From a virus (taxonomy: Duplodnaviria; Caudoviricetes): a stretch of 64,000 bases of DNA. Every line of letters begins with the position of its first letter. Positions within the stretch are counted from its first letter, which is position 1. Where the stretch lies: IMG/VR virus record IMGVR_UViG_3300020048_000002; one strand, given 5' to 3'. The position numbers and the translations under genes were made by a program. The notes under the pieces are model-generated. The model was not told the DNA's origin and did not search any database. It saw nothing but the letters and a program-made list of their open reading frames with translations. Positions 904 to 61,933 of this stretch are shown one piece after another.

Positions 904-935
904 CTAGTACGACTGAGACAGGCTCAAAATCAACC
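904..935 (-). promoter_or_regulatory. Repeated phage promoter motif, copy 1 (upstream of sigma gene)
   Basis: GGTTGATTTTGAGCCTGTCTCAGTCGTACTAG on minus strand. Confidence 0.8.
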
Positions 936-1156
936 AAGCCTGTTCTTTTGTCCGTGGTTGCCGCCACAAACTAGGGAACACACGTCTACCAAAAGGCCCT
1001 AAACAAAGCAACAAAATGCCGGAACATACCCAAGACTTTACTTGAAGGATGCTTCGGACCGGTGTAAGACCTCATTGTGAAAACGGTTGCCGCCGTTCTC
1101 GCGTTCCTCCCCGCGATGCCTCCGTGCCCTCACGGAGGCATCGCCCTTTCAGCCCC

Positions 1157-1714
1157 ATGGACACCACAAGCCCCCACAAACTGCAACAGGTGTTGATCGA
1201 GTGCGAAGCGATGCACGCGATCAACACGTTCATGCGACTCGGCCCCACCAACAAGAATGTGTGGCAGGCGGTGAAACGAGCCTACGATGTGCGCGGCCCG
1301 AGTGAAACCGTGTTGGACTACGTGACGACAGAGGCGTTAGCACACCTTGTACGTCAAACGTCCAAAGAGCCTCCCGTAACATCCCCCGCACCGGTATCAT
1401 CTTACATCGGGGAGACTTTGGGTCTCGCTTGGGTCGCTTGGAAACAGGGTCATGATCGACTTGCCAGGGAGCTGATTGAGAAAACCCACGAACCAGTCCA
1501 CAAGCGGATCATCGTATCGGGCCGGACCAGAGGGATGGACATGTTCGCCTTCTCTTTCTGGCACCGGGGGATCGAACATTTGCTCGACGGAAAGCTAGAC
1601 GAAGGCAAACGCATGTGGCAACGCGCCATCGAGGTCGCCACTGTTTTTGGCTCAGAAGCTAGCCCGACTCTTCAGTGGACCCACGCTGCCTCTTTCTACA
1701 CTTTACCTCAGTAG
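1157..1714 (+). CDS. Hypothetical alpha-helical (TPR-like) protein
   Basis: Open frame filling the intergenic space; helical C-terminal pattern; start uncertain. Confidence 0.55.
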   Translation: MDTTSPHKLQQVLIECEAMHAINTFMRLGPTNKNVWQAVKRAYDVRGPSETVLDYVTTEALAHLVRQTSKEPPVTSPAPVSSYIGETLGLAWVAWKQGHDRLARELIEKTHEPVHKRIIVSGRTRGMDMFAFSFWHRGIEHLLDGKLDEGKRMWQRAIEVATVFGSEASPTLQWTHAASFYTLPQ

Positions 1715-1725
1715 AAGCGAGATTT

Positions 1726-3306
1726 TCACGAGTCGAAGTAGTTTTCGCTCAGAAGCCTCGCCCGAAGGTAATCCGGGTCTGCGTAAGGCTCGTCTTCACG
1801 GATGATGAAAAGCCGGAACCGTCCATCCTCTCTTACCTGCCGTGCCTTCTCACGATCCCGTTCGACAAGCTCCTCGTAAGTGCTTCCCTCTTCGAAGAAC
1901 CATACGGATGCTGGGTCGTAGTGCTGCGAGCCCTGAAACTCACATAAGAGTCGGTACTCGGGGAAGAAACCGTCAAAACGAAAACGGCCCCCTGTTCGAG
2001 GATTGATGAACGTCCCATCGTTCCACTCGGTTTCGTAGCTCGATGTCTCCAACACTTCGGCCAGTGTCTCCAAGAAGATAGCTTGAGAGACCGCTGTGTG
2101 TGAGATGGGTAACCCATGCTTTGCACACTCACGGCGAATCGTTACAAAGGCATGACCGAGACCCACTATTGCACGCCCCACCGAAATCTTCCCGTTCTTG
2201 AGTGCGAAGGGGAGGAGCTGTTCGGGGGACAGGCTGACCTCGTTGCCGCTTGTCCAGTATCGTTTCTCTCGAACGGCTGCGACAGATTGGCTCATGGTTC
2301 GAATACGGCTATCCGAGCCTTTCGTGAGGCCCTTCGACCATGTAAGACGACCTGCCATCTTGGCGGCATGACTCGCTACCCGTTCATCCGTGCCCTTTGT
2401 GAGACCCGCATTCCACCGACCCGCGTTCGCAGCCATCTTGGCTCGGGTTTCGGGGGAGATAGTGCGGCCCTTCAGGGGTGAAACTCGAACAATAGAGGTA
2501 GCCTTTGGGCGTTCGGCTTCTACACAGTCAGGGCAACGGGTTTCGTGGGTCGTGGGCGCAAAGGTTAGCCCCACCGTTCGGAGTGCCCCACAGGAGGAAC
2601 ACGGAACCGTGCGAGTCTGCCCTTTACGGGGAGACTCCCGATGAGCTTGCCGAGCCTGCTCGGCTCGTGCCTCCCGTAGTGCGTCGGCTTGTACTTCGGC
2701 CCCATTGAACCGAGCCCGATAGGCTTCCACGGAGAGATCGTGTTCGGCCCGAAGGTGCCCGTCGATCCGCACTCCACGGTGCCCACAAAGTCGGCACCGT
2801 AGGTAGTCCTGGCCTTCTTGTTTACCCGCCCATTCGGCCTCGGCTTGAGCTTCGAGGTAAGCTCGATGAGCCTCGGGGTCACCGTGTTGGGGACGAGCCA
2901 TGTGCCCCGACAAGCCCTTCTCGCCCACGCATCCTAGCCCACACACCGGACAAGTGCGATCGGCCCCACGCTCCTTCCCTTCACAACCAAGGCAAAGGAT
3001 GCGGTTGGAACGTGCCCGTTGAAGCACGTTCAAGGTCACGGGAGCCGAACACGAGGAGCAAAGCTCCGTCACTTCGGCGATTGTACGAGGCTTACCCGCC
3101 GTCGCACGTCCTGTCTCAGCGGCAGCCTTTGCTTGGATGGTCTTTCCTCTGGCGTCGAATGCTTCCTGCCCGAACTCTCCCACCCACCACTTGCGAAGGG
3201 TGTTGGGGCTGACACCTAACCGCTGGGCCAACGCCTTGAAAGGCTCCTCCGTATGGAAGAGTGGAAAGGTGTCGGCAGGTAGAGGGGCGTTTGGGTTTTT
3301 GGGCAT
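1726..3306 (-). CDS. Homing-endonuclease-like protein (Zn fingers, NUMOD3-like repeats, C-terminal PD-(D/E)xK/Vsr-like nuclease)
   Basis: CxxC pairs, HLRAEHDLSVEAYRARF, SPETRAKMA/WNAGLTK repeats, RFDGFF..LCEFQGSQHY nuclease motif. Confidence 0.75.
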   Translation of the reverse strand: MPKNPNAPLPADTFPLFHTEEPFKALAQRLGVSPNTLRKWWVGEFGQEAFDARGKTIQAKAAAETGRATAGKPRTIAEVTELCSSCSAPVTLNVLQRARSNRILCLGCEGKERGADRTCPVCGLGCVGEKGLSGHMARPQHGDPEAHRAYLEAQAEAEWAGKQEGQDYLRCRLCGHRGVRIDGHLRAEHDLSVEAYRARFNGAEVQADALREARAEQARQAHRESPRKGQTRTVPCSSCGALRTVGLTFAPTTHETRCPDCVEAERPKATSIVRVSPLKGRTISPETRAKMAANAGRWNAGLTKGTDERVASHAAKMAGRLTWSKGLTKGSDSRIRTMSQSVAAVREKRYWTSGNEVSLSPEQLLPFALKNGKISVGRAIVGLGHAFVTIRRECAKHGLPISHTAVSQAIFLETLAEVLETSSYETEWNDGTFINPRTGGRFRFDGFFPEYRLLCEFQGSQHYDPASVWFFEEGSTYEELVERDREKARQVREDGRFRLFIIREDEPYADPDYLRARLLSENYFDS

Positions 3307-3332
3307 GACAAAGCCTCCGAAAGTCGCCGCTT

Positions 3333-3361
3333 AGGATACGACGCTCTCGGAGGCTTGTCAA
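3333..3361 (-). promoter_or_regulatory. Sigma70-type promoter of endonuclease gene, overlapping an inverted repeat
   Basis: TTGACA-N17-TATCCT; the arm at 3347-3360 is complementary to 3306-3320, which contains the GGAGG RBS. Confidence 0.65.
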
Positions 3362-3403
3362 GTCGTGCTAACTGTTCTGACTTTCTAACTCAGCTTCTTG
3401 GCC

Positions 3404-3455
3404 ACACCTACATCAAAACCCTGCTTTTTGCGGAGGTCTTAGATGTAGGTGCGTG
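3404..3455 (-). terminator. Long hairpin downstream of tail sheath gene
   Basis: CACCTACATC...GATGTAGGTG inverted repeat just after the stop codon. Confidence 0.5.
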
Positions 3456-3458
3456 TAA

Positions 3459-6400
3459 TCAAAGCTGCGCTCGAACGTTGAAGGTCAAAACGATATACAA
3501 AAGCGGGAAAACAGGCTGGTAGTAAGCCTCGAACCGCAGCACGGTGGGGTCGTTGGGGTCGACTGCCGAGCTGATGCCCGTGAAGGCTGCCACGATCTCA
3601 GCCGAGACGAGCTGCTTGAAAAGGCTCGTCATGGTGAGGTTGACCTCCTGGACGCGACCAGCAAGGAACTTCGTTCCGACGAACCGATCGAGAGTGAACC
3701 GGCTCTGCTGCTGAACGTGGTCGGAGATCTGCGTGACCGTGGGGAGGCGCGTGAGGATCGAGTCCATCTTGGTCGTGAGACCCTGACGAACACGAACGAT
3801 CGGATCGAGGTCCTCTAGGAGAGTCACGCCCTTCACGGCTGTCTGGTTCGCTTCCACCGGATCCAGGATGCGGGGGATTCGGGTGAAGCCTTGGATCTGA
3901 CGGCGCGTGTACGGCGTTGCCACGTCCACCGAGGGGCTCACCACCGCACCGGCCATGGCCGCTGCGAAGAACGAACCGTCGACAACCGACTCGAAGCTCT
4001 GTCCGAGTTGGTCCGTCAGGGTGACGATGGCGACGTCGGGGTAGAAGGCCACGATACGGTTCGAGTTGAGGCTCGATGCGATCGTAGCTGCTGCCGAGGG
4101 CGTCGTGTTCGGTGCGAACCCGATGAAGCCCATCCGTTCCGCTTGGTTCTGGATGAGGCTCTGCGTCTCGCAGTGTTGGACGAGTTGGGCGTACACCGCC
4201 GTGGACGTGGCAAGCGGGATGATGAGATCCGGCTTGATGTTGCCCGGGAGCGGCGTCGTCAGCTCGTTGAGGGCTGCGATGAAGTTGGAGTCCGGTGCCT
4301 GGTTGCTGTTGGCTGCCTTGAGGACCTGCTTGATACCCACGAACAGGGCACCGTTCAGGATCGCCAAGTAGGCCGCTAGCGTGACTCGGTTCTCCGCCGA
4401 GGTTCGACCGAAGTTCGCCTCGATGGTCTTCAGTTGCCGGAAGATCCGGGTCGTGTAGTCCTGCTTGAGGTACTTGTAGCTGATGTAGTACGGGTCCCCG
4501 TTGGCAGGCTCGATACCCGTTGGAGCAAACGTCTGAAGGTTTGCCGTGTCCTCGGGGGCGACGCCAACGGTGTTGCTCACCGTCAGCTCCATGCCGGGAA
4601 CCGAGTAGAACGGGATGGCCGGGTTCACGAGGAAGGTCGGGCTCACGTTCATCGTGAAGCTACCACCAATCGTGTAGCTCCCCGTGCTCGACGGGAGGAT
4701 GGTGAAGCGTAGACCCGTCCCCGTATCCGTGTACGTCTGCCCCGGAATGCCCGTACCGGACGAACCAGCCGGGTTGTTCGAGCTGACCGTGAAGATGTCC
4801 TCTGCGTCCTCGCCAACGTCTCCATCCGTCCCGACGGTGATGTTGACCCCGGTCGTGAGGTTGAAGGCCGAGTTCGCACTGGCCACGAACCCGATGCTCG
4901 AAGTCGTTAGACCCGTGGCAAGCGAGATGATGCCCAGGTACGTGCGACCCTGGATGCTCGTCGGGAACGCTACACCCGCCGTCAGGAAACCTGCCGTCGA
5001 GTTGAGCGTGTTGGCCACCTCTTGAGCCGAGACTCGAATCTGGCTTGCGGCCTGATTCTGCACGAACCCAAGCGTTGCGTTGGCATTGCCGTCGAGGATC
5101 ACGAGAGCCGAAGTATCGACATTCGTGGGGCTCATCAGACGGAGCTTGTCGAGGTTGCTCAGGGTACCCGCAGAGGCAAGGCCCGCCAGGACGAGGTTGA
5201 TGGCCGCTGCTACTGCTGCCGTGGCAACCGCCGCACCTGCCGGGAGCGTGGCCGTATAGTCCACACCATCGACTCGAACCTTGAAGGTGTCGTTGACACC
5301 CGTCGTGATGGCGAACGGGCCTGCAATCTCCCCGAGGAGTGTGGCGGGCTTGTTCACCGAGTTGGGCGACCCGAGAGCCGACGAGAAGGTCGTGAAGCCG
5401 AGTGTCGATTCCGCCGTCCCTTGGGCGACGTAGACCTTCGACACAGCATCGAACCCGCCCGGAAGTGCGCCCGGGGTCGAGTACGACTTGACGATGAAGT
5501 GGATGTCTCCCGTGCCGGGACCACCAACCTGAACGCGAGAGCACAGGCTGTTCGGTGCCGTACCGCTGAAGGCCGGGTCGGCATCGATGGCTGCGTTGAT
5601 TTCGCCGACGATGAACGCGGGCGTCTGGTTACCCGTCGTGAGCGTCACAGCGATCGATACACCATCGATCTCCAGGTTGAGGTCCTCGGAGCCGCTGAGG
5701 ATCGACACCTTGCCGAGGTCGGGACCCGACTGAATCGGCGTGACCGCACCACCGACGAGGAAGCCCTTCGTCGCTGCCGCGAGGTTCGAGGTGTAGTTCA
5801 CCCCGTTCAGCTTGGTGACCCACGTTGCCGAGAACGGCGTGTAGAACGAGTAGGGCTCAGCACCCTTGATCACGTACTCCGCGTTCGTCGGATCTGACTG
5901 GTCGAACGTGATCGTGACCGTCTCGCTGACCGCCGTCCCAGCTCCCGTGTGGAAAGCGTCCGGCACCTGCTCGGCCCCACGCGGCCACTGCACCGTCTCG
6001 GGCAGGCCGACCTTCGTACCAAACCGGGTCTGGTAGAGGTTCGAGTTGGAGAGAGCCGACGTTACCTGATACTGACCGACGCCAACCGCTCCGGCGACCT
6101 TGTTCGTGAACGTGAACGTGTCGTCCTGGAGACGGCTGTAGTAGAACGTGGCGTACGCCTGGTAATCCGGCGGCACCGGGTCCTTGAGGCTGATACGACG
6201 GGTTGCACCATCGACCGTGGTGACCATGGCAGCCCCACGCTGTAGAGCGTCGTAGAACGAACGACCAACGTACACCTCGACAAGATCGGGGCGGTTCGTG
6301 GTGAGGTCCTGACGGCCATTGGTGACGAGGTTGTAGTCCGTGATACCGAGCGGCGTGTTGCGCCCGTTCCCCATCGTGGGGATCTCAGGGAGGAGGAAGT

Positions 6401-7730
6401 CCGTCGTCGAAACGGTCGCAGGGATCGTCGTCGAATCGACGACACGCTCACACTCACCGAGGTACATCTTGTCGTCGTTGAGTACGCCGACAATCTGAGC
6501 GTCGTCGAAGGGCGTTGCACCCGCACTCGTCGAACCGGCAGCCACCGTGTAGCTCGACCCCCAGTGGATGATGCTGGTGTCCGCCGTCGGGTTGCTGACT
6601 ACGAAGTCCGTGTTCGCGATGTAGTCCGAACGATCCGGAGCGATACCACACTGAACGACCTGCGTGATCAACGTGTTCGGCAGGTAGTCGAACGTGTCTT
6701 GCCAGGTGTTGGCGAAGTAGTTGACCGTGACGAGCGACCCGGGGGCCGGGGGGAGGGGAAGGGTGATCGTGCCGTTCTGGCCGTCGACCGAGCTGGCCAA
6801 CACCTGCACGCTGTTCACCTTCACGACCACCTTCGAGGGGTCCGTCGTGGTGAGGCCAGAGCCCGAACCGTCCGTGATGGGGCGGTTGAACACCTTGAAG
6901 ACCTTGTTACGTCCCGTCGACTGGAAGTTCGACCAGCCGAGCGGTCCGTTGGCCGAACCGTCGAGGACCTGGAACTCCTGCGAAGCGAGGAACTGGAGGT
7001 GCTCCTTACCTTCGTTGTCGATGAAGACCGCCGTCGAGAAGTTCGAGATCCCGAGGATGTCGATCTGGGCCTTGAGGGTTGCGGCAGAAACCGAACCGGC
7101 CGAGAACACCACCGTGTAGCTCGTTCCGTTGACGCTGAACTTGAACGTGTCGTTCAGGCCCAACGTAATGGCAAACGGACCCGTAGCAGGGCTCGTGAGA
7201 ATCGCCTGGTCCTCCGTGACCTGATCCGACAGCTCGTCGAGGAACGCCGTGTCCCCACGGTGGAAGTAGTACGAGCACCGCACGACGTCGGTCGGCTGCG
7301 TCGGGATCTGGAGAGTCACGAGACCACGCTGGCCGTTGACCACCGCGACAGTCGTCGGGATGCCATTCACCGTGACCGTGACCGTACGGGCATCGTTCGT
7401 TACCCGACCAAGGCCCTGACCGTCGACGATGGGGTAGTTACGAACTCGGAACTGCGTCCGAGTACCATCCTGCGCCCCAAGGACAAGGCTGTTGGGGTTG
7501 GTCGAATCAACGACCCAAGCCAGCGTAACGTCCTCGTTGTTGATGCGCTGATCAGCCGTTGCCGACGATCCGCGAACGAGAGCCACGTTGTCCTGGTTCA
7601 GCTCTTCCTGCCCCGTGCCGATGATGACGGGAAGGCGGAGTCCAGCGACAAGCTGTGCGACGTTGGACTCCGTAAGGGTCCGCGTGTAAATGCCGGGCGG
7701 GACGTAGGTAACAAAAGGTCCGAGAGCCAT
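3459..7730 (-). CDS. Contractile tail sheath protein with large beta-rich insertions
   Basis: N-terminal YVPPGIYTRT, sheath C-terminus (HCETQS..ERMGFIG, VRQGLTT, FEAYYQPVFPLLYIVLTFNV); 1423 aa. Confidence 0.9.
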   Translation of the reverse strand: MALGPFVTYVPPGIYTRTLTESNVAQLVAGLRLPVIIGTGQEELNQDNVALVRGSSATADQRINNEDVTLAWVVDSTNPNSLVLGAQDGTRTQFRVRNYPIVDGQGLGRVTNDARTVTVTVNGIPTTVAVVNGQRGLVTLQIPTQPTDVVRCSYYFHRGDTAFLDELSDQVTEDQAILTSPATGPFAITLGLNDTFKFSVNGTSYTVVFSAGSVSAATLKAQIDILGISNFSTAVFIDNEGKEHLQFLASQEFQVLDGSANGPLGWSNFQSTGRNKVFKVFNRPITDGSGSGLTTTDPSKVVVKVNSVQVLASSVDGQNGTITLPLPPAPGSLVTVNYFANTWQDTFDYLPNTLITQVVQCGIAPDRSDYIANTDFVVSNPTADTSIIHWGSSYTVAAGSTSAGATPFDDAQIVGVLNDDKMYLGECERVVDSTTIPATVSTTDFLLPEIPTMGNGRNTPLGITDYNLVTNGRQDLTTNRPDLVEVYVGRSFYDALQRGAAMVTTVDGATRRISLKDPVPPDYQAYATFYYSRLQDDTFTFTNKVAGAVGVGQYQVTSALSNSNLYQTRFGTKVGLPETVQWPRGAEQVPDAFHTGAGTAVSETVTITFDQSDPTNAEYVIKGAEPYSFYTPFSATWVTKLNGVNYTSNLAAATKGFLVGGAVTPIQSGPDLGKVSILSGSEDLNLEIDGVSIAVTLTTGNQTPAFIVGEINAAIDADPAFSGTAPNSLCSRVQVGGPGTGDIHFIVKSYSTPGALPGGFDAVSKVYVAQGTAESTLGFTTFSSALGSPNSVNKPATLLGEIAGPFAITTGVNDTFKVRVDGVDYTATLPAGAAVATAAVAAAINLVLAGLASAGTLSNLDKLRLMSPTNVDTSALVILDGNANATLGFVQNQAASQIRVSAQEVANTLNSTAGFLTAGVAFPTSIQGRTYLGIISLATGLTTSSIGFVASANSAFNLTTGVNITVGTDGDVGEDAEDIFTVSSNNPAGSSGTGIPGQTYTDTGTGLRFTILPSSTGSYTIGGSFTMNVSPTFLVNPAIPFYSVPGMELTVSNTVGVAPEDTANLQTFAPTGIEPANGDPYYISYKYLKQDYTTRIFRQLKTIEANFGRTSAENRVTLAAYLAILNGALFVGIKQVLKAANSNQAPDSNFIAALNELTTPLPGNIKPDLIIPLATSTAVYAQLVQHCETQSLIQNQAERMGFIGFAPNTTPSAAATIASSLNSNRIVAFYPDVAIVTLTDQLGQSFESVVDGSFFAAAMAGAVVSPSVDVATPYTRRQIQGFTRIPRILDPVEANQTAVKGVTLLEDLDPIVRVRQGLTTKMDSILTRLPTVTQISDHVQQQSRFTLDRFVGTKFLAGRVQEVNLTMTSLFKQLVSAEIVAAFTGISSAVDPNDPTVLRFEAYYQPVFPLLYIVLTFNVRAQL

Positions 7731-15985: not shown

Positions 15986-16309
15986 TCAGGAAGCGGGGGA
16001 GGCTTCCTTGGCTTCAGGGGCAGCAGGTTGAGGTGCCTGGGGACGTAGAACACGGATGTTCCCCGTCTGAGCCTCGATCTCCACGGGGGTCGTCGGAGAA
16101 AGCCCACGGTCCATGAGCACCTTCTCGAACAGGCGGCCACGCTCCTCGTCGACTCGATTGGCCGCCACAAGGAGCTTCACCTTGTCCTGCTCCATCTCCA
16201 AGAGCCGTTCAGCGATGTCGAACCGAGCAGCACCCAGCTCTTCGAGCTTCTTGCGCGTCTCGGGGTCGACCGGATCGCTCGGGGTCAGTTTCTTCGTCTC
16301 ACCACTCAT
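15986..16309 (-). CDS. Hypothetical coiled-coil protein
   Basis: GGAG RBS before ATG 16309. Confidence 0.65.
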   Translation of the reverse strand: MSGETKKLTPSDPVDPETRKKLEELGAARFDIAERLLEMEQDKVKLLVAANRVDEERGRLFEKVLMDRGLSPTTPVEIEAQTGNIRVLRPQAPQPAAPEAKEASPAS

Positions 16310-16321
16310 TTTTTCTCCGGA

Positions 16322-16353
16322 CGTTGATTTGGAAGGGTCGAGAGTCGTACTAG
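16322..16353 (+). promoter_or_regulatory. Repeated phage promoter motif, copy 2
   Basis: CGTTGATTTGGAAGGGTCGAGAGTCGTACTAG. Confidence 0.8.
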
Positions 16354-16369
16354 GAGGGAGGAATCCCCC

Positions 16370-16666
16370 ATGTACACGATTCAAGAGCTTTCTACAACTT
16401 TGGACGATCTCACAGAAGGAGGGCTCTACGCCCTCAACTACGTAGCCAAAAACGAGGGGCTCACACCCTTCGTATGGGCCACACCGGATGGTACTGAAAG
16501 CGTTATCCTGTTCGTCGGGCTCGATGCTCAGGGTCGAGTCCAGTACTTCGACTACGCTCGTACACCGAGCGACACACAGAGAGATGAACAGATCCGCACC
16601 TTGGCCACGAAACGAGAGCACACAAGTACACCGAAGAAGCGCCTGTCCACGACAGGGTGGAACTAG
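16370..16666 (+). CDS. Hypothetical early-type protein, opposite orientation within structural module
   Basis: Promoter motif plus GGAGG RBS directly upstream. Confidence 0.7.
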   Translation: MYTIQELSTTLDDLTEGGLYALNYVAKNEGLTPFVWATPDGTESVILFVGLDAQGRVQYFDYARTPSDTQRDEQIRTLATKREHTSTPKKRLSTTGWN

Positions 16667-49686: not shown

Positions 49687-50403
49687 TCAGAGGCGCTCCC
49701 AGAAGGCCGGGGGCTTGGCAACGAAGCCCGGAATCTCACTGGCGTTGGACCAGTGCATGGTCCCCTTGGCGTCCCGGACCCCCACTCGGGTCTGCCACTT
49801 GTTTCGGAACTTGGTCGCACCCGACCAGGCGAGGATCCCCTCGACCCCTTGGACGGTGACCTTCGTGCCCTTGGGAGGCAGCCCGTTCAGAGCCTCCTCA
49901 GCAACCTTCCGTTGCTTCTCCGAGGCAGCTTCACGAGCCGCCCGCTTGGCTGCCTTCTCAGCCTCCTTGCGAGCCTCAAGCTCACGAGCCTCTTGAGCCT
50001 TCCGCTTATCCTCGGCCCTCTTGGCCTCCCGGTGGGCCTCGTAGGCGGCATAGTCCGCCTTCATCTCCTCGGTCCACACGACATCCACCTCGGCCGTTAG
50101 CCAGATGTCCGACATCCCGATCCGGGCCGACATGTTCGTGCAGTCGACCCAGCCGAACCGCTCGTGCGGAGCAAGGTCTTGGGGCTTGGAATAGGGGCCG
50201 AGGACCTCGGGTACATACTCGGTGTACCCGAGGTCCCAGCTCGTCCCCAGGTACACGAGGGCATCCACGCACTCAGTCGGGTGGCGGTCGGTGTAATCCA
50301 TGGTCCCCGACCAGTTTCGGGTCCCGGTGTATTGGAAAACCTTGAGGACACGACCCTCAAAGAGAGTCTCGACGCTTTCCCCGCTCTTTCGGATGATGCT
50401 CAT
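49687..50403 (-). CDS. Hypothetical leaderless early-type protein
   Basis: ATG 4 nt after promoter motif; ends FWERL. Confidence 0.75.
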   Translation of the reverse strand: MSIIRKSGESVETLFEGRVLKVFQYTGTRNWSGTMDYTDRHPTECVDALVYLGTSWDLGYTEYVPEVLGPYSKPQDLAPHERFGWVDCTNMSARIGMSDIWLTAEVDVVWTEEMKADYAAYEAHREAKRAEDKRKAQEARELEARKEAEKAAKRAAREAASEKQRKVAEEALNGLPPKGTKVTVQGVEGILAWSGATKFRNKWQTRVGVRDAKGTMHWSNASEIPGFVAKPPAFWERL

Positions 50404-50407
50404 GCCC

Positions 50408-50439
50408 CTAGTACGACTCTGGGGGGTCTCAAATCAACC
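50408..50439 (-). promoter_or_regulatory. Repeated phage promoter motif, copy 3 (leaderless)
   Basis: GGTTGATTTG..GAGTCGTACTAG-gggc-ATG. Confidence 0.85.
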
Positions 50440-51591: not shown

Positions 51592-51831
51592 TCAGGCTCG
51601 GGCGGCCCGTGCCGCCACGAACAGGGCTCGACGCCCTTCGACGTCGAGCTTGTCCCGCTTGGACTCACAGCGTGCCCGCTGGCACAGGTAGAAGCCCGGA
51701 CCATCGGAGCCATCGTGTACAACCTCGTCATCCGAGACGTACTCCATACCGACCGGCTTGTTGCAGCAGTCGCAGAGGCGACTGGCAACGAACTGCCCGT
51801 TCCCCAACCCCGATCGTTTGTCGTACTTCAT
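51592..51831 (-). CDS. Small Cys-rich leaderless protein
   Basis: ATG 4 nt after motif; CDCC, CxxxxC. Confidence 0.7.
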   Translation of the reverse strand: MKYDKRSGLGNGQFVASRLCDCCNKPVGMEYVSDDEVVHDGSDGPGFYLCQRARCESKRDKLDVEGRRALFVAARAARA

Positions 51832-52573: not shown

Positions 52574-52605
52574 CTAGTACGACTCGCGTACGCTCACGAT
52601 CAACC
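52574..52605 (-). promoter_or_regulatory. Repeated phage promoter motif, copy 5 (leaderless)
   Basis: GGTTGATCGT..GAGTCGTACTAG-gggc-ATG. Confidence 0.8.
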
Positions 52606-52611: not shown

Positions 52612-52644
52612 GAAAGACCCCCAAAGATTTCTCCTTGGGGGTCT
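52612..52644 (-). terminator. Terminator hairpin, identical to 53437-53469
   Basis: AGACCCCCAAGGAGAAATCTTTGGGGGTCTTTC. Confidence 0.75.
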
Positions 52645-52662
52645 TGTCTGCCCTTGGGGGCC

Positions 52663-53002: not shown

Positions 53003-53034
53003 CTAGTACGACTGAGCCCACCTCAAAATCAACC
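53003..53034 (-). promoter_or_regulatory. Repeated phage promoter motif, copy 6 (leaderless)
   Basis: GGTTGATTTT..CAGTCGTACTAG-gggc-ATG. Confidence 0.85.
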
Positions 53035-53398: not shown

Positions 53399-53430
53399 CT
53401 AGTACGACTCAGAGAGGGTCAAACCCAACC
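53399..53430 (-). promoter_or_regulatory. Repeated phage promoter motif, copy 7 (variant -35, leaderless)
   Basis: GGTTGGGTTT..GAGTCGTACTAG-gggc-ATG. Confidence 0.75.
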
Positions 53431-53436: not shown

Positions 53437-53469
53437 GAAAGACCCCCAAAGATTTCTCCTTGGGGGTCT
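53437..53469 (-). terminator. Terminator hairpin, identical to 52612-52644
   Basis: 33-bp exact duplicate. Confidence 0.75.
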
Positions 53470-53472
53470 CCT

Positions 53473-55020: not shown

Positions 55021-55298
55021 GGTGTAGGTAGCGTCCTACAAGGACTCCCACACTGGGGGTCATCGGACCTCCCCACTTCAGCCAATCGAGTCTCCAAAAA
55101 ACTCCAAGGGCCGATACCCTCGGACAAGGATACCGGCCCCTAGCGACCTGTCAGGCTCGTCGTCGCCCCGAACTTTGTGGTTGTCGGCACCTCGCGCTCT
55201 GAGTTCGCGTTCTCCCGGCTGCGTCCGCATGACTCGACGGAAGACCCACCGTAACTGCCACCCTGTCCGGAGTGACCCCCGCCGTGGTCGCGGGGAAG

Positions 55299-55370
<72 letters not shown>

Positions 55371-55540
55371 GAAACACCGGGCTTGTCACCCCGGCAGGAG
55401 CCTCGGATTTACCACCACCGCTGCTCACTCTCGTGAGCCCCCGGGACCTGCATCCTTGGCTAGCCGGTCCCGACCCAACATCACTCGACGACATCCAAGC
55501 GTTGCTTCCGTCCGGCGGTGTACCCACTCAACCCCCGTGA

Positions 55541-55595
55541 CGCGGGGAGCAGGACTCGAACCTGCTCCGTTCTCCGGTTCAGAAGCACTCCCCGC
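55541..55595 (-). ncRNA. Minimal tRNA-like element lacking the D-arm
   Basis: Acceptor GCGGGGA/TCCCCGC, T-arm GCAGG-TTCGAGT-CCTGC, a single 4-bp hairpin between them. Confidence 0.5.
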
Positions 55596-55714
55596 TGCGG
55601 CTTTTCACTAGAAGGACGTTCTGTGCCCTCCAGCGGGTATCAAACCCGCGCCGATCTCAGCGTAAGAGTCGCTTGGCTGTCAAGGAGCGGAGGGGGCCGA
55701 AGCACCCTCGATCT

Positions 55715-55746
55715 CTAGTACGACTCGACACCCTCTAAAATCAACC
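55715..55746 (-). promoter_or_regulatory. Repeated phage promoter motif, copy 8 (drives RNA cluster)
   Basis: GGTTGATTTT..GAGTCGTACTAG with no ORF downstream. Confidence 0.8.
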
Positions 55747-55750
55747 GAAT

Positions 55751-55915: not shown

Positions 55916-55919
55916 GATC

Positions 55920-55951
55920 CTAGTACGACTCAGCTCCCTCCAGAATCAACG
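55920..55951 (-). promoter_or_regulatory. Repeated phage promoter motif, copy 9 (leaderless)
   Basis: CGTTGATTCT..GAGTCGTACTAG-gatc-ATG. Confidence 0.85.
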
Positions 55952-56026
55952 GACGGATCAAAAATCGAAGGGCCGCCACTCTCGGAAGAGTATCGGCCCT
56001 TGAGAAGGGGTCGAGGAACGTCAGGC

Positions 56027-56446
56027 TCAGTGGGCGTAGGGCACTACCCAGTCGTCGTCATCGGGGATGGCCGACTGAAGACCTTGGAGGCCCTTATGGC
56101 TGGCGGCGATCTCCAACGCCAGCTCGGGGTTGGCCATGACAGCGTTGTACGTTCGCTTGCCCAAGCCAACGATGACCCCAAGCAGGTCTTCCATGTCTCT
56201 GGCAGGGATGTCGATCACGCCCTTGAGCTGCTTACCGAGCTTGCCCATCAGCATTTCAGTCATCTTCTTGAACTGATCTGTCTGCTCCCTTGGAAGGAGC
56301 CGCTTGAGATTAATTTTCCCATCACTGCGGTACTTTACTTTGGATCCCCAGCCGAACTTCTCCACGATGTCCCAGAAGGCGCTCTCGCTGAGAGCGGAAG
56401 CCTCTAGGTACCTTGCCACAACTCGGCGGGGTCGGACGCTGCTCAT
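56027..56446 (-). CDS. DUF4240-like protein with RVVARYL leader
   Basis: LSESAFWDIV..IVGLGKRTYNAVMANP. Confidence 0.55.
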   Translation of the reverse strand: MSSVRPRRVVARYLEASALSESAFWDIVEKFGWGSKVKYRSDGKINLKRLLPREQTDQFKKMTEMLMGKLGKQLKGVIDIPARDMEDLLGVIVGLGKRTYNAVMANPELALEIAASHKGLQGLQSAIPDDDDWVVPYAH

Positions 56447-56477
56447 ACCTGAGCCCGCCCTACAAGTAAAAGTCCAA

Positions 56478-56705
56478 TCAGCCCCCGATGTCTACGAGGC
56501 GGGCAGGGAAGACCTCCGAGGGGTCGACCTGCCGCACGCCTTCCACGATGGCGCGGACGTAGTTCGCTCGCCCGAACCCAGGCGTCTGGATGTCTCCGAG
56601 GACGGAGACGATGCGGAAGCAGCCGTCCTCGTTCTCCAGGACATCCCCCACTCCGGGGAGGCCGTTCCCGCACTCGTGAACCGTGAACTCTTTACGCATT
56701 GTCAT
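56478..56705 (-). CDS. Hypothetical protein
   Basis: AAGGAG RBS. Confidence 0.6.
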   Translation of the reverse strand: MTMRKEFTVHECGNGLPGVGDVLENEDGCFRIVSVLGDIQTPGFGRANYVRAIVEGVRQVDPSEVFPARLVDIGG

Positions 56706-56720
56706 TCTCCTTCTTGTTGC

Positions 56721-56975
56721 TCAGAACGGGAGGTCGTCCGTCTCGTCGAAACCCACCGGGGCGACCGGGACCGGAATCACGTCCACGGGAGCCTCCAGCT
56801 CCTCCGGGCGGTCATCTTCGGGGTGACGCTGCCCATCGTAATGCACCGGGCAGCGGTGCCACGTATCCAGATCCGAGCAAGCCCAGCCGTGACCCCGGCA
56901 GGGGCAGCGGTCGGCCCGCTTCTCCGCCCAAAACCCACGATCGAACTCCCGGTACTCAGCCTCCAACAGCGACAT
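56721..56975 (-). CDS. Small Zn-binding protein with SSB-like DDLPF tail
   Basis: CPCRGHGW..SDLDTWHRCPVH; ends DDLPF. Confidence 0.65.
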   Translation of the reverse strand: MSLLEAEYREFDRGFWAEKRADRCPCRGHGWACSDLDTWHRCPVHYDGQRHPEDDRPEELEAPVDVIPVPVAPVGFDETDDLPF

Positions 56976-56997
56976 TTTCTCAACTCTCCCTTCCCTC

Positions 56998-57029
56998 CTA
57001 GTACGACTGAGCCCCCTCCAAAATCAACC
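56998..57029 (-). promoter_or_regulatory. Repeated phage promoter motif, copy 10
   Basis: GGTTGATTTT..CAGTCGTACTAG followed by a leader with RBS. Confidence 0.8.
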
Positions 57030-57081
57030 GAACCGGTGTAAAAAAGATCGGACCAAAAATTAGACCAAGGGAGAAACCCCA

Positions 57082-57113
57082 CGTTGATTTTGCGGGGTCG
57101 GCTGTCGTACTAG
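57082..57113 (+). promoter_or_regulatory. Repeated phage promoter motif, copy 11 (divergent from copy 10)
   Basis: CGTTGATTTT..CTGTCGTACTAG. Confidence 0.8.
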
Positions 57114-57151
57114 AAGTGTGCCACGGGATTTCGTGGTGGAAGGAAACTGCT

Positions 57152-57751
57152 GTGTACGAAGAAGAGGACAACTTTTTTGATCCGCCGATGGAGGTCGAAA
57201 ACCCCATCTTGGAGACGACGGCTGAGGTAGTCGCCAAAGCGGAAGCCATTGCCAAACGGGCGATGAAGGGGTTTCGCAAAGGATCGAAACGTCCAGCTTG
57301 GGAACACCCGGCGGACGTGGTCGCGCTCGTGAAACGAGTCCCCGGGGTACGTCCCAACTTGGGAACGCAAAACTACCTGGAGGCTCTGGCGTGGCTCCAC
57401 GATGTCTTGGAGGACACGGAGGTCACGGAAGAGGATTTGCGAAACGAGGGTATTCCGGAACACGTCATCTTGGGGGTCAAGGCGTTGACCCGTGAGGAAT
57501 GGATGACGACGAACTTCTACTACCGGAACTTGGACCGCTCGTTCGAGCTGGTGAAGATCGTCAAGGTCTGCGACCGTATCGCGAACTTGACGGAGGGCAA
57601 ACCGCTTCTCCCCCGAAGCTGGTGGATGAAGTACACGGGGGAGACGAAACACTTCGTCGCCCCCCTGACCTTCGAGATGGGAGAGCCATGGCGAGCATGG
57701 CTCCTCGAACAACTCAAGTTGGCCGCGAGCGGCCCCGACTCTCAGTACTGA
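57152..57751 (+). CDS. Small alarmone hydrolase-like HD protein (SpoT/Mesh1 type)
   Basis: RKGS..HP..V, AWLHDVLEDT, VKALT, VKVCDRIANL; frame open from 57116. Confidence 0.8.
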   Translation: MYEEEDNFFDPPMEVENPILETTAEVVAKAEAIAKRAMKGFRKGSKRPAWEHPADVVALVKRVPGVRPNLGTQNYLEALAWLHDVLEDTEVTEEDLRNEGIPEHVILGVKALTREEWMTTNFYYRNLDRSFELVKIVKVCDRIANLTEGKPLLPRSWWMKYTGETKHFVAPLTFEMGEPWRAWLLEQLKLAASGPDSQY

Positions 57752-58983
57752 GCTGCCGCCTTCATGCCGATGTCGTACGCCTCAGCCCACTCCTTCATCG
57801 AGAGCTGGGTCGAGACATCGATGACTTTGGCTACGAGCTGCTTCTCCGTCGCATCGAGCGATGCAATCGCCTTCTCAGGAGCGTAGATGAGATCGTGCGA
57901 GAGAGCGGCTTCCATCTCGTTGACCGACGTCTTGAGCTGGAACTCGACAACGATCCCGGCAGCTTCGAGGTTGTAGTTGATGGCGTTGTACCCGATGTTC
58001 TTCAGGTAGTAGTTCTTCTTGTCCAGGATGTCGAACTTGCCCTGCGTCACAGCGGCGACATGAGCCATGTTCTGAATGCTGGGGGTCACCACACGGCAAC
58101 CTACCAAGTCCTTGAAGTAGAGCATCGAGGTCTTTTCACGACCCTGCTTGCCGAAGATGCTCTTCCCCATCTTCATTCGGCTAGCGTACTCGCCCTCAGC
58201 CGCACCACCGATGGCACCGTCGACCTCGGCCTTCGCCTTCTGAAGGATCGGTAGGACCGCCTCGTAGGCTCGGTCGAAAAAGACCGCATCCTTGATCATC
58301 TTCTCGTGAATCAGGTCCGGGTCCTCCCCCGTCGCCTGTGCGATGACCTTCTTCAGCATCTCGGCCTGTGCCTTGAGAGCACCTTCGGTCCGAGCCGAGA
58401 AGGGCTGTACGAACGCAGCAAGGTCACGCTCGCTGGGTAGAGCTTGCTCCTCCCCCTTTTCGAGCTTCTTCAGGATCGCCATCCCCTTGCCGGAGATCAT
58501 CTCCTTGTTCTCAAGGAGCGTCTCAAGGCTGAACCCCTTCTGGCTCATCTTGCGCATCTCCATGAGACGCTTCAGGACGTTGGCGTTGTTCCCGCCCGGC
58601 AACTGGAGCCCCTGGTCCGTGAGCCGCTTGATGAGCCCAATCGTGAAGTCGAGGGCCTTCAGGTACTTCGCCTTGGCTACAAGGTGACGGAAGGCTACAC
58701 GCACAGACATCGTGCTCTCCTGGAGAGCAACCGGCGACTCCGAAGCCGACTTCTTCTTTTTCTTCCCCGCCTGGAGAGCCTTCTTGGCAGCGTCCTCCAT
58801 CGACTTGGCAGCAGCTCCCGACCCATCCTTTTTGTACAGCTCAGCAGCGGCAAGATAGGCGACTGCCGCATCCTCGTGCCGATTTGCCTTCAGGTGGGCC
58901 TCAGCCTCATCGCGTAGCCCGGAAGGTGTTTTCGACTTGGGGCTCTTTTTTGCGGTCACTTCCGTGGCGTAGCGGCTCGACAT
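57742..58983 (-). CDS. Small alarmone synthetase-like (RelA/SpoT nucleotidyltransferase) protein with long N-terminal extension
   Basis: SRMKMGKSIFGK, DLVGCRVV, GYNAIN, VEFQLKT, HDLIY. Confidence 0.8.
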   Translation of the reverse strand: MSSRYATEVTAKKSPKSKTPSGLRDEAEAHLKANRHEDAAVAYLAAAELYKKDGSGAAAKSMEDAAKKALQAGKKKKKSASESPVALQESTMSVRVAFRHLVAKAKYLKALDFTIGLIKRLTDQGLQLPGGNNANVLKRLMEMRKMSQKGFSLETLLENKEMISGKGMAILKKLEKGEEQALPSERDLAAFVQPFSARTEGALKAQAEMLKKVIAQATGEDPDLIHEKMIKDAVFFDRAYEAVLPILQKAKAEVDGAIGGAAEGEYASRMKMGKSIFGKQGREKTSMLYFKDLVGCRVVTPSIQNMAHVAAVTQGKFDILDKKNYYLKNIGYNAINYNLEAAGIVVEFQLKTSVNEMEAALSHDLIYAPEKAIASLDATEKQLVAKVIDVSTQLSMKEWAEAYDIGMKAAAQY

Positions 58984-59020
58984 GGGTAGGGAGTCTCCTC
59001 TCTACCCACGGTGGCATAAG

Positions 59021-59053
59021 AAAAACCGCTAGAGAGCGAACTCCCTAGCGGTC
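59021..59053 (-). terminator. Terminator after tRNA-Tyr
   Basis: ACCGCTAG..CTAGCGGT followed by a T-run on minus strand. Confidence 0.65.
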
Positions 59054-59059
59054 TCGTCG

Positions 59060-59141
59060 TGGAGCGTGATGGATTTGAACCACCGTAGGCATTGCCAACT
59101 GGTTTACAGCCAGTCCCCTTTAGCCACTCGGGCAACGCTCC
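59060..59141 (-). tRNA. tRNA-Tyr(GUA)
   Basis: GGAGCGT..CT-GTA-AA, long variable arm, GGTTCAAATCC..ACGCTCCA. Confidence 0.92.
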
Positions 59142-59194
59142 GTGGCTCCTACCCTACACTGAGTGTGTCCCCGTGTCGAGTAGGCTTCTCCGAC

Positions 59195-59902
59195 TCACTC
59201 CGATAGCTCTTGGGCCATCTTCCAAACGATGAGATGGAAAACGCACTGCTTCAGCAAAGCCTTGTTCTTGAGCACGTAGTCGGCCGTCAGGACGATCGGA
59301 GCCATCGGAGACATCCCCATCCGTGCAGAGATTTTGAGTGCGTCCTTGTAGTACCCCCGGAACTTCGACTCGAAGATCTTCGTCATCTTCGAAAGATATT
59401 CGGGTAGAGGAAGGGTTGCGTCACGGCTTCGTGCATCAAGCCACTCTAGAGCCTTCTGGTGAGCCTCGATCATAAAAGGGGGTAACGACCCCTCCCACTC
59501 GAAGAAATCGCTCAGGAGGGTATGTACCGAGCGACTGACACCGGCTGCTTGCCGGGGGGCCGAGGCGTAGGACATCATCATGGGCTCTAGTCCCTGCTGA
59601 TGCTTCCGAGGGTTCGAGAACGTGTCCGAGATCATCGATCCGATGGACACTAGCTCCCGTTTGAACCCCGCTAGGGAACGCATTTGGTCCTCCTGGAAAC
59701 GTAGGAGAGCTTCCATGGCTCGGATGGTGTCCCGCCTCGAAGCCTCTGCCTCGGGCATCCCAGGGAACTTGGCGACGTCATCCCGGAGAACCTGTAAATC
59801 CCTCCGTAACTTTCCCATCGCCTTCTCGGCCGTAGCTACGTAGCCAAGAAGATCCTCTGCGTCGTCCTTCGTCGGTGGGAAGAGTCGTGCGCTTCGTTCC
59901 AT
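59195..59902 (-). CDS. Hypothetical two-module helical protein
   Basis: RSA and RQAA linkers as in the other putative cargo proteins. Confidence 0.6.
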   Translation of the reverse strand: MERSARLFPPTKDDAEDLLGYVATAEKAMGKLRRDLQVLRDDVAKFPGMPEAEASRRDTIRAMEALLRFQEDQMRSLAGFKRELVSIGSMISDTFSNPRKHQQGLEPMMMSYASAPRQAAGVSRSVHTLLSDFFEWEGSLPPFMIEAHQKALEWLDARSRDATLPLPEYLSKMTKIFESKFRGYYKDALKISARMGMSPMAPIVLTADYVLKNKALLKQCVFHLIVWKMAQELSE

Positions 59903-60096
59903 GCCGAAGGAGGAGGGACAAGAGAATTATCCCCTACGCCCCGGACGATAGCGCCCCGTAGGAACGCTTCCAAACGAACAAGGCCGGGTACTACCGTCCC
60001 GACCCACCAAGGCTTTCCTGAGCACTTCTTGTTCGAGGAACAAGGAACACGAAAAGCTACCGTGAAATTTCACACCCCCTCATCGGGGGACATCCC

Positions 60097-60261
60097 TCAG
60101 ATCCTACGCCTCTCCACCCTCAAGTCGGAGTCGATGGCGTAGTAGCCCCCGTCCTCGTCCACGAGGACGTAACCGCTCATGGCAGCGATCTGAACCTCCA
60201 GCTCCTTCCCGTAGAGGGAGAGCTTCGTCCCGACCGCCAATCTGGGGGTGACGTAGTTCAT
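60097..60261 (-). CDS. 54-aa hypothetical protein (not in ORF track)
   Basis: AAGGAG RBS; MNYVTPRLAVGTKL.. Confidence 0.6.
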   Translation of the reverse strand: MNYVTPRLAVGTKLSLYGKELEVQIAAMSGYVLVDEDGGYYAIDSDLRVERRRI

Positions 60262-60273
60262 GGTGTCTCCTTC

Positions 60274-60558
60274 TCAGTCCATGTTGTTCAGGATGAGGTC
60301 CCGGGTCGGGTTCGACCCGAAGTACCAGGACTTCACCCAGAAGCCCTGAGCACGGGCCGCCTGGTAGACCTCGTGGGCCTTCTCCCAGGCGAGGTCCGCC
60401 TCGATCCTCTTCTTCTCTTGGTAGTCGAGGGGACTACCAAGCTCCGGGTTTGCCCTGGCGTCCCCGTAAGCACACACGGCGGCGTGCTTCGCCTCGACAT
60501 AAAAACGCTCAGCCTTCGTCATGGCCATCTTGGCCGCCCGGTCACTCTTGAACTTCAT
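60274..60558 (-). CDS. Hypothetical leaderless protein
   Basis: ATG 4 nt after motif. Confidence 0.75.
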   Translation of the reverse strand: MKFKSDRAAKMAMTKAERFYVEAKHAAVCAYGDARANPELGSPLDYQEKKRIEADLAWEKAHEVYQAARAQGFWVKSWYFGSNPTRDLILNNMD

Positions 60559-60562
60559 GCTC

Positions 60563-60594
60563 CTAGTACGACTCTGGGAGGCTCAAAATCAACC
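60563..60594 (-). promoter_or_regulatory. Repeated phage promoter motif, copy 12 (leaderless)
   Basis: GGTTGATTTT..GAGTCGTACTAG-gagc-ATG. Confidence 0.85.
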
Positions 60595-60647
60595 AAGGGG
60601 GCCGGATTTCTCCAGCCCCCTTCAAGTTTCCCCCCAGGGGAGCCCTC

Positions 60648-60911
60648 TCAGAGCCCCGCGAGGTAGCGGCGAGCCGCCTCCTGTCCCCGGAGGAACGTCC
60701 TCTGATTCTCCGGCATCCAGAGGAGGGAGCGGACCCCTACCTCCTCTTCCTTCCAGCCGAGGAGGCCCAGGACCCGGGAGATCTCCCCTCGGACCGCCGA
60801 CTCCCCGATTCGGGGACGGGCCTGCATGAGGGCGTTGAGAGCCCCCACGAGCATGTCCTCACGGAGAGCGGGATTGGCGGGGAGGCGGAAAGAGATCTGG
60901 TTCATGGTCAT
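60648..60911 (-). CDS. Hypothetical protein
   Basis: AAGGA RBS after motif. Confidence 0.65.
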   Translation of the reverse strand: MTMNQISFRLPANPALREDMLVGALNALMQARPRIGESAVRGEISRVLGLLGWKEEEVGVRSLLWMPENQRTFLRGQEAARRYLAGL

Positions 60912-60925
60912 CGTTCCTTTCCCCC

Positions 60926-60957
60926 CTAGTACGACTCGACTCCCTCCAAAATCAACC
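60926..60957 (-). promoter_or_regulatory. Repeated phage promoter motif, copy 13
   Basis: GGTTGATTTT..GAGTCGTACTAG. Confidence 0.8.
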
Positions 60958-60978
60958 AGCCGGTGTAAAAAAGACACG

Positions 60979-61140
60979 ATGGCTCAAAAGACGAGCATCC
61001 CTGCCCATGTCCGAACCTCCACCTCGGCTGCGTCCAGCCCCGTGTTCGTAAACAACGTCTTGCCCATCGCAGCCACGGCGAACCTAGAGCCCATCAAAAG
61101 CGATTGGGACAGACTCGTCGAACCCGAGAAAACACCATGA
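60979..61140 (+). CDS. 53-aa peptide ending DWDRLV
   Basis: ATGA-coupled to the HAD gene. Confidence 0.5.
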   Translation: MAQKTSIPAHVRTSTSAASSPVFVNNVLPIAATANLEPIKSDWDRLVEPEKTP

Positions 61141-61640
61141 GCATCGAACGCATCGCCATCTTTGACTTTGACGGGACCCTGTTCGCTTCCCCCGAGAAAC
61201 CCGACTGGTGGCCCCACCAAGGCTTTTGGGGGCGTATCGAAACGCTCTCCCCACCCTTGGTCCCAGAGAAACCCGAAGCCGATTGGTGGTCCTCCCAAGT
61301 GGTCCTAGAGGCCAAGAGGGCAGCAGCGGACCCCTCAACCCACACTTGTTTGCTCACCGGGCGTGTCGGGAAATTTGAGAAGAGGGTTCGAGAGTTGCTC
61401 GAAACCGTAGAGATTCGCTTCGACGACCACTTCTTCGCGTCGGGTAGTGCGACCCTACCCTTCAAGCTCGCAACGATCGAAAAGCTCGTCCAAAGGTTCC
61501 CAGGGGCCAAGCTCGTCGAGATGTGGGACGACCGAGAGGAGCACACGGGGGATTTCGAGACAACGATCCGAAGGCTCGGCTTGGAAGCCAACGTCCACAG
61601 GGTCGAGCGAGTGACTCACGATTTCGTCAGGGTCGGTTGA
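61137..61640 (+). CDS. HAD phosphatase (Swiss-army-knife RNA-repair HAD-like)
   Basis: IFDFDGTLFASP, LLTGR, FK, MWDDREEH. Confidence 0.8.
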   Translation: MSIERIAIFDFDGTLFASPEKPDWWPHQGFWGRIETLSPPLVPEKPEADWWSSQVVLEAKRAAADPSTHTCLLTGRVGKFEKRVRELLETVEIRFDDHFFASGSATLPFKLATIEKLVQRFPGAKLVEMWDDREEHTGDFETTIRRLGLEANVHRVERVTHDFVRVG

Positions 61641-61666
61641 TTTTGGGGGTAGCTGAGTCGTACTAG
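61635..61666 (+). promoter_or_regulatory. Repeated phage promoter motif, copy 14 (leaderless)
   Basis: GGTTGATTTT..GAGTCGTACTAG-ggac-GTG. Confidence 0.85.
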
Positions 61667-61670
61667 GGAC

Positions 61671-61865
61671 GTGGCAAACATCAAGATCCAACCGAAGCCC
61701 GAAAGAGCCCTCCAGGTCCGCGACCTCCTCGACGGACGGTTCTCAAGGCAGGTATACCAATACACCGCCTACCCGGACGGTTCCCTCGTGCTGCACGGGG
61801 CGATGAAGGGGATCCTCACCGACATCGTACGGGGCCTCGAACGGGAGGGGCTCCTCCTGGGGTAA
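61671..61865 (+). CDS. Hypothetical leaderless protein
   Basis: GTG 4 nt after motif. Confidence 0.7.
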   Translation: MANIKIQPKPERALQVRDLLDGRFSRQVYQYTAYPDGSLVLHGAMKGILTDIVRGLEREGLLLG

Positions 61866-61901
61866 CAAAAGAGGGGTCAGACGAAGAAATGTCTGACCCT
61901 C

Positions 61902-61933
61902 GGTTGATTTTGGAACCTGCTCAGTCGTACTAG
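61902..61933 (+). promoter_or_regulatory. Repeated phage promoter motif, copy 15 (leaderless)
   Basis: GGTTGATTTT..CAGTCGTACTAG-gacc-ATG; preceded by hairpin 61874-61899. Confidence 0.85.

Follow-up and report, generated by a model that had tools for sequence, protein, structure and literature searches.

A 31-bp motif, GTTGATT-N14-GTCGTACTAG, is repeated 15 times in a 64,000-nt stretch (the window) of the virus record IMGVR_UViG_3300020048_000002, and is very probably a promoter from which transcription starts at or next to the start codon of the gene behind it. The source contig of 310,849 bp belongs to an uncultured huge freshwater phage, of whose genome the window is about a fifth. The copies would constitute a family of sigma-dependent promoters with TTGATT as the -35 element, TCGTA as the -10 element and a fixed gap between them, and host core RNA polymerase would start at the fifth base past the motif. 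On balance, the evidence points to a sigma factor other than the housekeeping one, probably encoded by the phage itself, as the factor that reads it. The host is bacterial, as judged from the sigma gene and the Shine-Dalgarno sites of the phage.

Copies of the motif and what they precede

A search of the window for the motif with up to three mismatches gave 15 sites; in 100 dinucleotide shuffles the mean was 0.08 and the highest count 2. These are exactly the sites listed in the initial annotation, which had been made from the letters of the window. Twelve copies are exact. The other three carry one or two mismatches, namely TTGATC at 52574, TTGGGT at 53399 and, in the third, a change in the base before GTCG; that two copies vary in the TTGATT box had been described before. 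All copies are intergenic, and some intergenic gaps consist of the motif with 4-5 nt on either side and nothing else. Thirteen of the copies lie within 50-62 kb, among small genes, and two of these (56998 and 57083) are arranged back to back, each serving one of a pair of divergent genes. Elsewhere in IMG/VR the exact motif gave one chance match only.

The position table of the 15 copies has ten fully invariant bases, which make up GTCGTACTAG, while G-GTTGATTTTG and the A just before the second block are nearly invariant. The spacer is G-rich and variable in sequence, and a weak T-rich patch is found about 15 nt upstream of the first block. TTGATT, which resembles a -35 hexamer of the TTGACA type, is present in 13 copies. 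The two halves never occur separately: a search with the -35 block, GGTTGATTTTG, returned motif copies only, and the -10 block, AGTCGTACTAG, with at most one mismatch, was found in the 15 copies and at two chance sites. The distance between the halves is identical in every copy, as the initial annotation had it. The copies, the sigma-like gene and the tRNA gene associated with them are listed below.

93-890, minus strand: divergent sigma-70-family gene of 265 amino acids (aa), identified from sub-threshold family matches, the domains of its homologs and its predicted fold
904-934, minus strand: motif copy 1; behind it come GGGGGAGG, 5 nt and the GTG with which the sigma-like gene starts
16323-16353, plus strand: motif copy 2, followed by a Shine-Dalgarno leader and an open reading frame (ORF) of 98 aa at 16370-16666 on the plus strand
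50408-50438, minus strand: motif copy 3, leaderless, with ATG at 50403 and an ORF of 238 aa
51836-51866, minus strand: motif copy 4, leaderless, with ATG at 51831 and an ORF of 79 aa
52574-52604, minus strand: motif copy 5 (TTGATC), leaderless, ORF of 131 aa; terminator-like hairpin at 52614-52645 just upstream
53003-53033, minus strand: motif copy 6, leaderless, ORF of 111 aa
53399-53429, minus strand: motif copy 7 (TTGGGT), leaderless, ORF of 105 aa; upstream hairpin sequence as at copy 5
55298-55370, minus strand: tRNA-Thr(GGT), inside the RNA unit headed by copy 8
55715-55745, minus strand: motif copy 8, with no ORF after it, heading an RNA unit that ends at a strong terminator at 55104-55143
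55920-55950, minus strand: motif copy 9, leaderless, ORF of 54 aa
56998-57028, minus strand: motif copy 10, with an 18-nt leader containing GGGAGAG, then an ORF of 84 aa; back to back with copy 11
57083-57113, plus strand: motif copy 11, leadered, before an HD-domain (alarmone hydrolase-like) gene
60563-60593, minus strand: motif copy 12, leaderless, ORF of 94 aa; terminator-like hairpin at 60595-60622 abutting the -35 half
60926-60956, minus strand: motif copy 13, with a 10-nt leader containing AAAGGA, then an ORF of 87 aa
61636-61666, plus strand: motif copy 14, leaderless with GTG, ORF of 64 aa
61903-61933, plus strand: motif copy 15, leaderless, ORF of 97 aa; hairpin at 61873-61900 abutting the -35 half

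Nine copies form a leaderless class, in which the start codon is ATG (50408, 51836, 52574, 53003, 53399, 55920, 60563 and 61903) or GTG (61636). It stands exactly 4 nt past the motif, as had been claimed from the outset, and opens ORFs of 54-238 codons; among random ATGs in the window only 35% open at least 54 codons. Four copies form a short-leader class, with a purine-rich Shine-Dalgarno box right behind the motif and the start codon 10-19 nt past the predicted transcription start. At copy 57083 there is a GTG 4 nt after the motif that opens 20 codons. This GTG is out of frame, so that the copy is not leaderless and the HD-hydrolase ORF probably starts about 35 nt in, after a GGAAGGA box. 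In the RNA unit of copy 55715 the tRNA-Thr gene lies about 340 nt downstream and is followed by an 18-bp terminator hairpin. The earlier claim that the motif always points into the next gene holds for all 15 copies, with the corrections that copy 16323 serves a plus-strand ORF and that the product of copy 55715 is an RNA.

The ten small genes served by the motif that were scanned against Pfam and NCBIfam gave no match in any case.

Some further observations concern individual copies. Copy 16323 is alone in the structural region, where a minus-strand ORF of 211 aa (window 15986-16666), probably over-called at its 5' end, had masked the 98-aa gene on the plus strand; the latter has a Shine-Dalgarno box and is divergent from the shortened minus-strand gene. 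Between copy 8 and the tRNA-Thr gene (55371-55710, minus strand) there are two T-arm-like stretches, GGGTTTGATACCC and GGTTCGAGTCC, a weak tRNA-like Rfam match and a moderately stable fold (z-score -2.5); these stretches may be degenerate or unusual tRNA genes of the copy-8 unit. Copies 56998 and 60926 (copies 10 and 13) have about 20 nt of extra upstream sequence in common, and directly upstream of both, on the opposite strand, GGTGTA is followed by AAAAAGA (window 57035 and 60962, plus strand). Copies 5 and 7 have an identical terminator-like hairpin of about 30 nt upstream (52614-52645 and 53440-53470, minus strand), while the genes they serve are unrelated, a hint that the regulatory cassette may have been duplicated or exchanged by itself.

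A second version of the motif in a sister phage

The comparison was made with one contig bearing a homolog of the sigma gene, IMG/VR 3300010354_000064 (75.5 kb), and with 3300010354_000517 from the same sample. In this sister phage the virion (capsid) protein is 81% identical to that of the window phage and the sigma ortholog 56% identical. The sister repeat, TTGRTW-N..-GCTCACCTCGTAGAGG, was found in 13 copies, ten of them on 3300010354_000064 and three on 3300010354_000517. An ATG stands exactly 4 nt past the repeat in ten of the 13 and opens ORFs of 56-111 codons. The sigma ortholog is preceded by a variant of the repeat, TCGTAACGG, and, as in the window, a Shine-Dalgarno leader lies between the two.

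What the two phages have in common, at identical spacing, is no more than TTG..T in the first half and TCGTA in the second. The invariant bases that flank TCGTA differ, being AG/CTAG in the window phage and CC/GAGG in the sister phage. Numbered from the predicted start, C-G-T-A at -12 to -9 is invariant in all 28 copies of both phages, and so is the spacing. With the exception of the sigma gene, no similarity among the served genes was detectable, either within or between the two phages. Since no served gene apart from the sigma gene is shared between the compared regions, the comparison indicates that selection acts on the signal and not on duplicated genes, and that it is the motif rather than the gene that is conserved.

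In 36 capsid relatives of lower similarity (43-65% identity), nine of which are complete, TTG-N18-TCGTA was not enriched over a reversed-pattern control, and no homolog of the window sigma was found. The sites before two distant sigma homologs (32% identity; E 8e-20) read TTGAYN-N17-TAGTC (L003:3330-3380 and L059:1930-1975, minus strand). This pattern was rejected as a promoter family in a 398-kb relative and in contig L003, where it is single-copy. No cultured relatives were found with megablast of 50-62 kb or with tblastn of the sigma and a 524-aa virion protein against 50,697 phage records.

Predicted start site and promoter geometry

Bacterial RNA polymerase prefers a purine at +1 and a pyrimidine at -1; initiation peaks 7 bp past the -10 element and seldom occurs more than 1 bp upstream of that peak (PMC5730371). 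Of the 28 copies in the two phages together, 27 have a purine as the fifth base past the motif. Immediately before this predicted start, all 19 leaderless copies have a pyrimidine, which is a C in all nine of those in the window. The Shine-Dalgarno box of the leadered copies starts 3-5 nt past the motif and would be lost if transcription began further downstream. The fixed 4-nt gap, a purine at +1 preceded by a pyrimidine, and the placement or absence of the Shine-Dalgarno box together make the A or G of the start codon itself the predicted transcription start of the leaderless copies.

With this start, TTGATT lies at -34 to -29 and TCGTA at -13 to -9, which gives the layout TTGATT-N16-CGTA. 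The hexamer at -12 to -7 is CGTACT in the window phage and CGTAGA in the sister phage. Neither has an A at -11, the base that is flipped out by housekeeping sigmas (PMC6411747), and a consensus scan at the motif copies found no TAnnnT -10 element with A at -11 and T at -7. TACTAG or TAGAGG taken as the -10 element falls outside the normal range, because the start would lie only 5 bp downstream. The initial annotation had put +1 at the start codon and named CGTACT, without A at -11, as the -10 hexamer; the sister layout with its TCGTA core, the purine and pyrimidine counts and the placement of the Shine-Dalgarno boxes are all in agreement with it.

Initiation at this position would have different consequences for the different classes of copies. 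At nine copies the first transcribed base would be the A or G of the start codon, resulting in an mRNA without a leader. At five copies the Shine-Dalgarno box would stand at the extreme 5' end of a leader of 9-34 nt, and one copy (55715) would produce a tRNA transcript.

It is very improbable that the motif is something other than a promoter, such as an operator, a junction at which gene cassettes recombine or a site where RNA processing shortens messages to their start codon. The intergenic gaps that contain the motif alone are compatible with such a function, and the copy pairs 52574/53399 and 56998/60926, each sharing extra upstream sequence, hint at cassette duplication. However, the strict orientation, the two parts at sigma-like spacing and the pyrimidine/purine pair at -1/+1 argue for a promoter, as do the copy before the tRNA unit and the two back-to-back copies that serve divergent genes. 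A role in recombination could coexist with promoter function, but it leaves the orientation, the spacing and the start signature unexplained. A hairpin or RNA processing site was rejected, the halves of the motif not being complementary and no conserved hairpin being present for an RNase.

The sigma gene and the reading of the motif

Gene 93-890 scores just under the curated cut-offs of Sigma70_r2 and of TIGR02937, the model of the extracytoplasmic function (ECF) sigma superfamily. It has 14 homologs in metagenomes, at 48-65% identity, some of which carry PF04542 and PF04545. The AlphaFold model (mean predicted local distance difference test score, pLDDT, 82) matches the region 2 domains of many sigmas with Z 6-8, and these fold matches cover ECF and group 3 sigmas alike. 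Region 2 is interrupted by an insert of about 95 aa. The insert (residues 49-125 of the protein) aligns weakly (E 0.06) to region 3 of the sporulation sigmaF, including the helix-turn-helix; judged from this alignment, it could be a displaced module of the region 3 kind and not one resembling an excisionase. A sigma scan of the genome contigs gave no match, and neither Pfam, NCBIfam nor a comparison of profiles revealed sigma similarity in the gene right after the sister sigma ortholog (L002:6769-7602, plus strand). A promoter scan found no canonical sigma-70 promoter near the sigma gene of either phage, and canonical sigma-70 promoters were not enriched in 49-64 kb.

The missing A at -11, the near-invariance and the rigid spacing make a non-housekeeping sigma the more likely reader. 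The sigmaH promoter of M. tuberculosis, GGAAYA-N17-GTT, has GGAAYA at -34 to -29 and GTT in the -10 element, and ECF sigmas differ from primary sigmas in that they require elements close to the consensus and a spacer of rigid length (PMC6411747). The motif agrees with this in having its -35 half at -34 to -29, G-T-A at -11 to -9 and a -10 element of the CGT type, in being near-invariant with a rigid spacer, and in preceding the gene of the sigma itself. It differs in that the -35 half is TTGATT or TTGGTA (GTTGATT/GTTGGTA), without the AAC core, that the candidate sigma is sub-threshold and carries the insert of about 95 aa, and that the regulon consists of phage ORFans with leaderless starts. 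The resemblance to ECF promoters suggested in the initial annotation thus covers the -10 half as well as geometry and rigidity, but not the -35 half. The SigW promoters of B. subtilis, TGAAAC-N16-CGTA, are likewise similar in layout to TTGATT-N16-CGTA.

The best candidate for the reader would be the phage's own two-domain ECF-like sigma, encoded by gene 93-890. Autoregulation is a hallmark of ECF sigmas, and this gene would be autoregulated, since in both phages it lies behind a copy of the motif. The lack of a canonical sigma-70 promoter near either sigma gene and the joint absence of motif and sigma from the 36 capsid relatives also favour this candidate.

Several points weigh against a phage sigma as the reader. 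The TTGATT half looks like a housekeeping -35 element and has no ECF-type AAC core. The served genes are of a classical early type (small ORFans, the sigma, the alarmone hydrolase-like gene and a tRNA), for which the host holoenzyme, the normal reader of early genes, would be expected. If a sigma reads the only visible promoter of its own gene, something else must start the loop. The family matches of the sigma are below the curated cut-offs, its region 2 carries the insert of about 95 aa, the link between sigma and motif comes from two phages only, and the start site is deduced from sequence and comparison.

An alternative that is possible, although rather unlikely, is that the copies are early promoters read by the host housekeeping sigma, in the manner of the promoter early stem-loop (PeSL) cassettes, with the phage sigma as one early product that switches on later promoter classes. 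TTGATT has four of the six bases of TTGACA, there is a slightly T-rich stretch near -50, and the served genes are small ORFans in a promoter-dense region, together with the sigma gene. Recognition by the host would also solve the bootstrap of a sigma gene without another visible promoter. Terminator-like hairpins abut several copies, as in PeSLs (PMC2839356). Such hairpins, rich in G+C, were scored directly upstream of three copies (52574, 60563 and 61903), and at 60563 and 61903 the T-rich tail of the hairpin is the -35 half itself.

Reading by the housekeeping sigma is, however, difficult to reconcile with CGTACT or CGTAGA at -12 to -7, which have no A at -11 and in the sister phage no T at -7 either. 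TACTAG as the -10 element needs a start 5 bp downstream, which is rare (PMC5730371), and this reading would remove the Shine-Dalgarno box from the leadered copies. The promoters of PeSLs fit the sigma-70 consensus (PMC2839356), whereas the motif copies do not. Ten invariant bases, with phage-specific changes between the sisters, would be unusual for a tolerant sigma (PMC6411747).

It is also highly unlikely that a phage-encoded RNA polymerase, single-subunit or multisubunit, with its gene outside the window, uses the motif as its promoter. The block at -15 to -5 is very highly conserved, as would suit such an enzyme, and the inspected sequence is about a fifth of the 311-kb genome. Against this, a two-part signal with a spacer of 14 nt that is variable in sequence and fixed in length corresponds to sigma contacts and not to a contiguous promoter of the T7 type. 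No RNA polymerase domain was found among the 74 window proteins, and the sigma-family gene implies use of the host core polymerase.

The suggestion of the initial annotation that the leaderless regulon may be resistant to a shut-off of host translation is speculative, and a more elaborate version of the phage-sigma reading is speculative and improbable. The motif would form a hybrid class with a housekeeping-like -35 and an ECF-like -10 element, read only by the phage sigma with its extra DNA-binding insert in region 2. Its private, mostly leaderless regulon would be translated while the phage disables the Shine-Dalgarno-dependent translation of the host, and the loop would possibly be started by sigma delivered with the virion.

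Comparison with known systems

The PeSL cassettes of T4-type phages consist of a sigma-70-consensus promoter followed by a Shine-Dalgarno box and a start codon (PMC2839356, PMC4122927). As in these, one probable promoter is repeated in the window before many small genes, in what may be a plastic region, and lies only a few bases past the previous stop codon; terminator-like hairpins adjoin several copies. The window motif differs in its non-canonical -10 element and in that nine of the 15 copies (60%) have no Shine-Dalgarno box and would have no leader.

In the sigma cascades of other phages (SPO1 gp28 and gp33/34, T4 gp55, phiEco32 gp36) a sigma-family protein of the phage redirects the host core polymerase to phage-private promoters (PMC13401047), which is the arrangement favoured here. 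In those cascades, in contrast, transcription of the sigma gene depends on the housekeeping sigma of the host, and there is no fusion of promoters to start codons.

The predicted placing of the promoter so that the transcript begins at the start codon is shared with the leaderless mRNAs of Actinobacteria, Deinococcus and archaea. The leaderless genes of Actinobacteria, however, use a normal TANNNT -10 element. In the halovirus HF2, intergenic repeats are promoters specific to infection stages (PMC8707807). They have archaeal TATA and B recognition elements (BRE), whereas the window phage has a sigma gene and Shine-Dalgarno sites. The reading as an archaeal virus with TATA/BRE promoters was rejected on two grounds: the sister phage is not rich in A and T at positions -31 to -26, and a sigma factor is among the phage's own genes.

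Phage-private promoters that are read by phage sigmas are well known, and no new principle is involved here. What is new is a sister phage with its own version of the motif and the same 4-nt gap to the ATG. If the assignment is true, an uncultured huge-phage lineage gains a transcription map with a promoter, a predicted start, a candidate sigma and about 15 or more co-regulated ORFans. The sigma and its promoter would then be an orthogonal pair that can be tested as ECF pairs have been. The leaderless genes would be another case of systematic leaderless translation by a phage, and make the separation of phage and host translation testable.

Other features of the window

The window encodes virion proteins, homing endonucleases, ThyX, RelA/SpoT-like and HD proteins and two tRNAs. 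According to rough gene calls, the genes are on the minus strand up to about 60.9 kb and on the plus strand after 61.1 kb.

Other candidate promoter signals were seen. GGTGTA has 43 occurrences, mostly intragenic, and CTTAT-N8-12-TAG has four matches against 7.4 in shuffles; as promoter classes both are unsupported by counts alone. CTTAT-N9-11-TAG with a purine-rich box is found at 22187, 33735, 37926 and 59020 (minus strand), before four minus-strand genes that include the RelA/SpoT-like synthetase. These sites could be a second promoter class, although there are four of them against the 7.4 in shuffles.

For a structural protein of 616 aa, the only matches were to distant proteins, from cyanophages and others. 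Among the window proteins there is also one with a match to the Volactin actin-like family (PF25216, E 3e-76), while an intein splicing domain and several families of endonuclease VII and homing endonucleases are matched by others.

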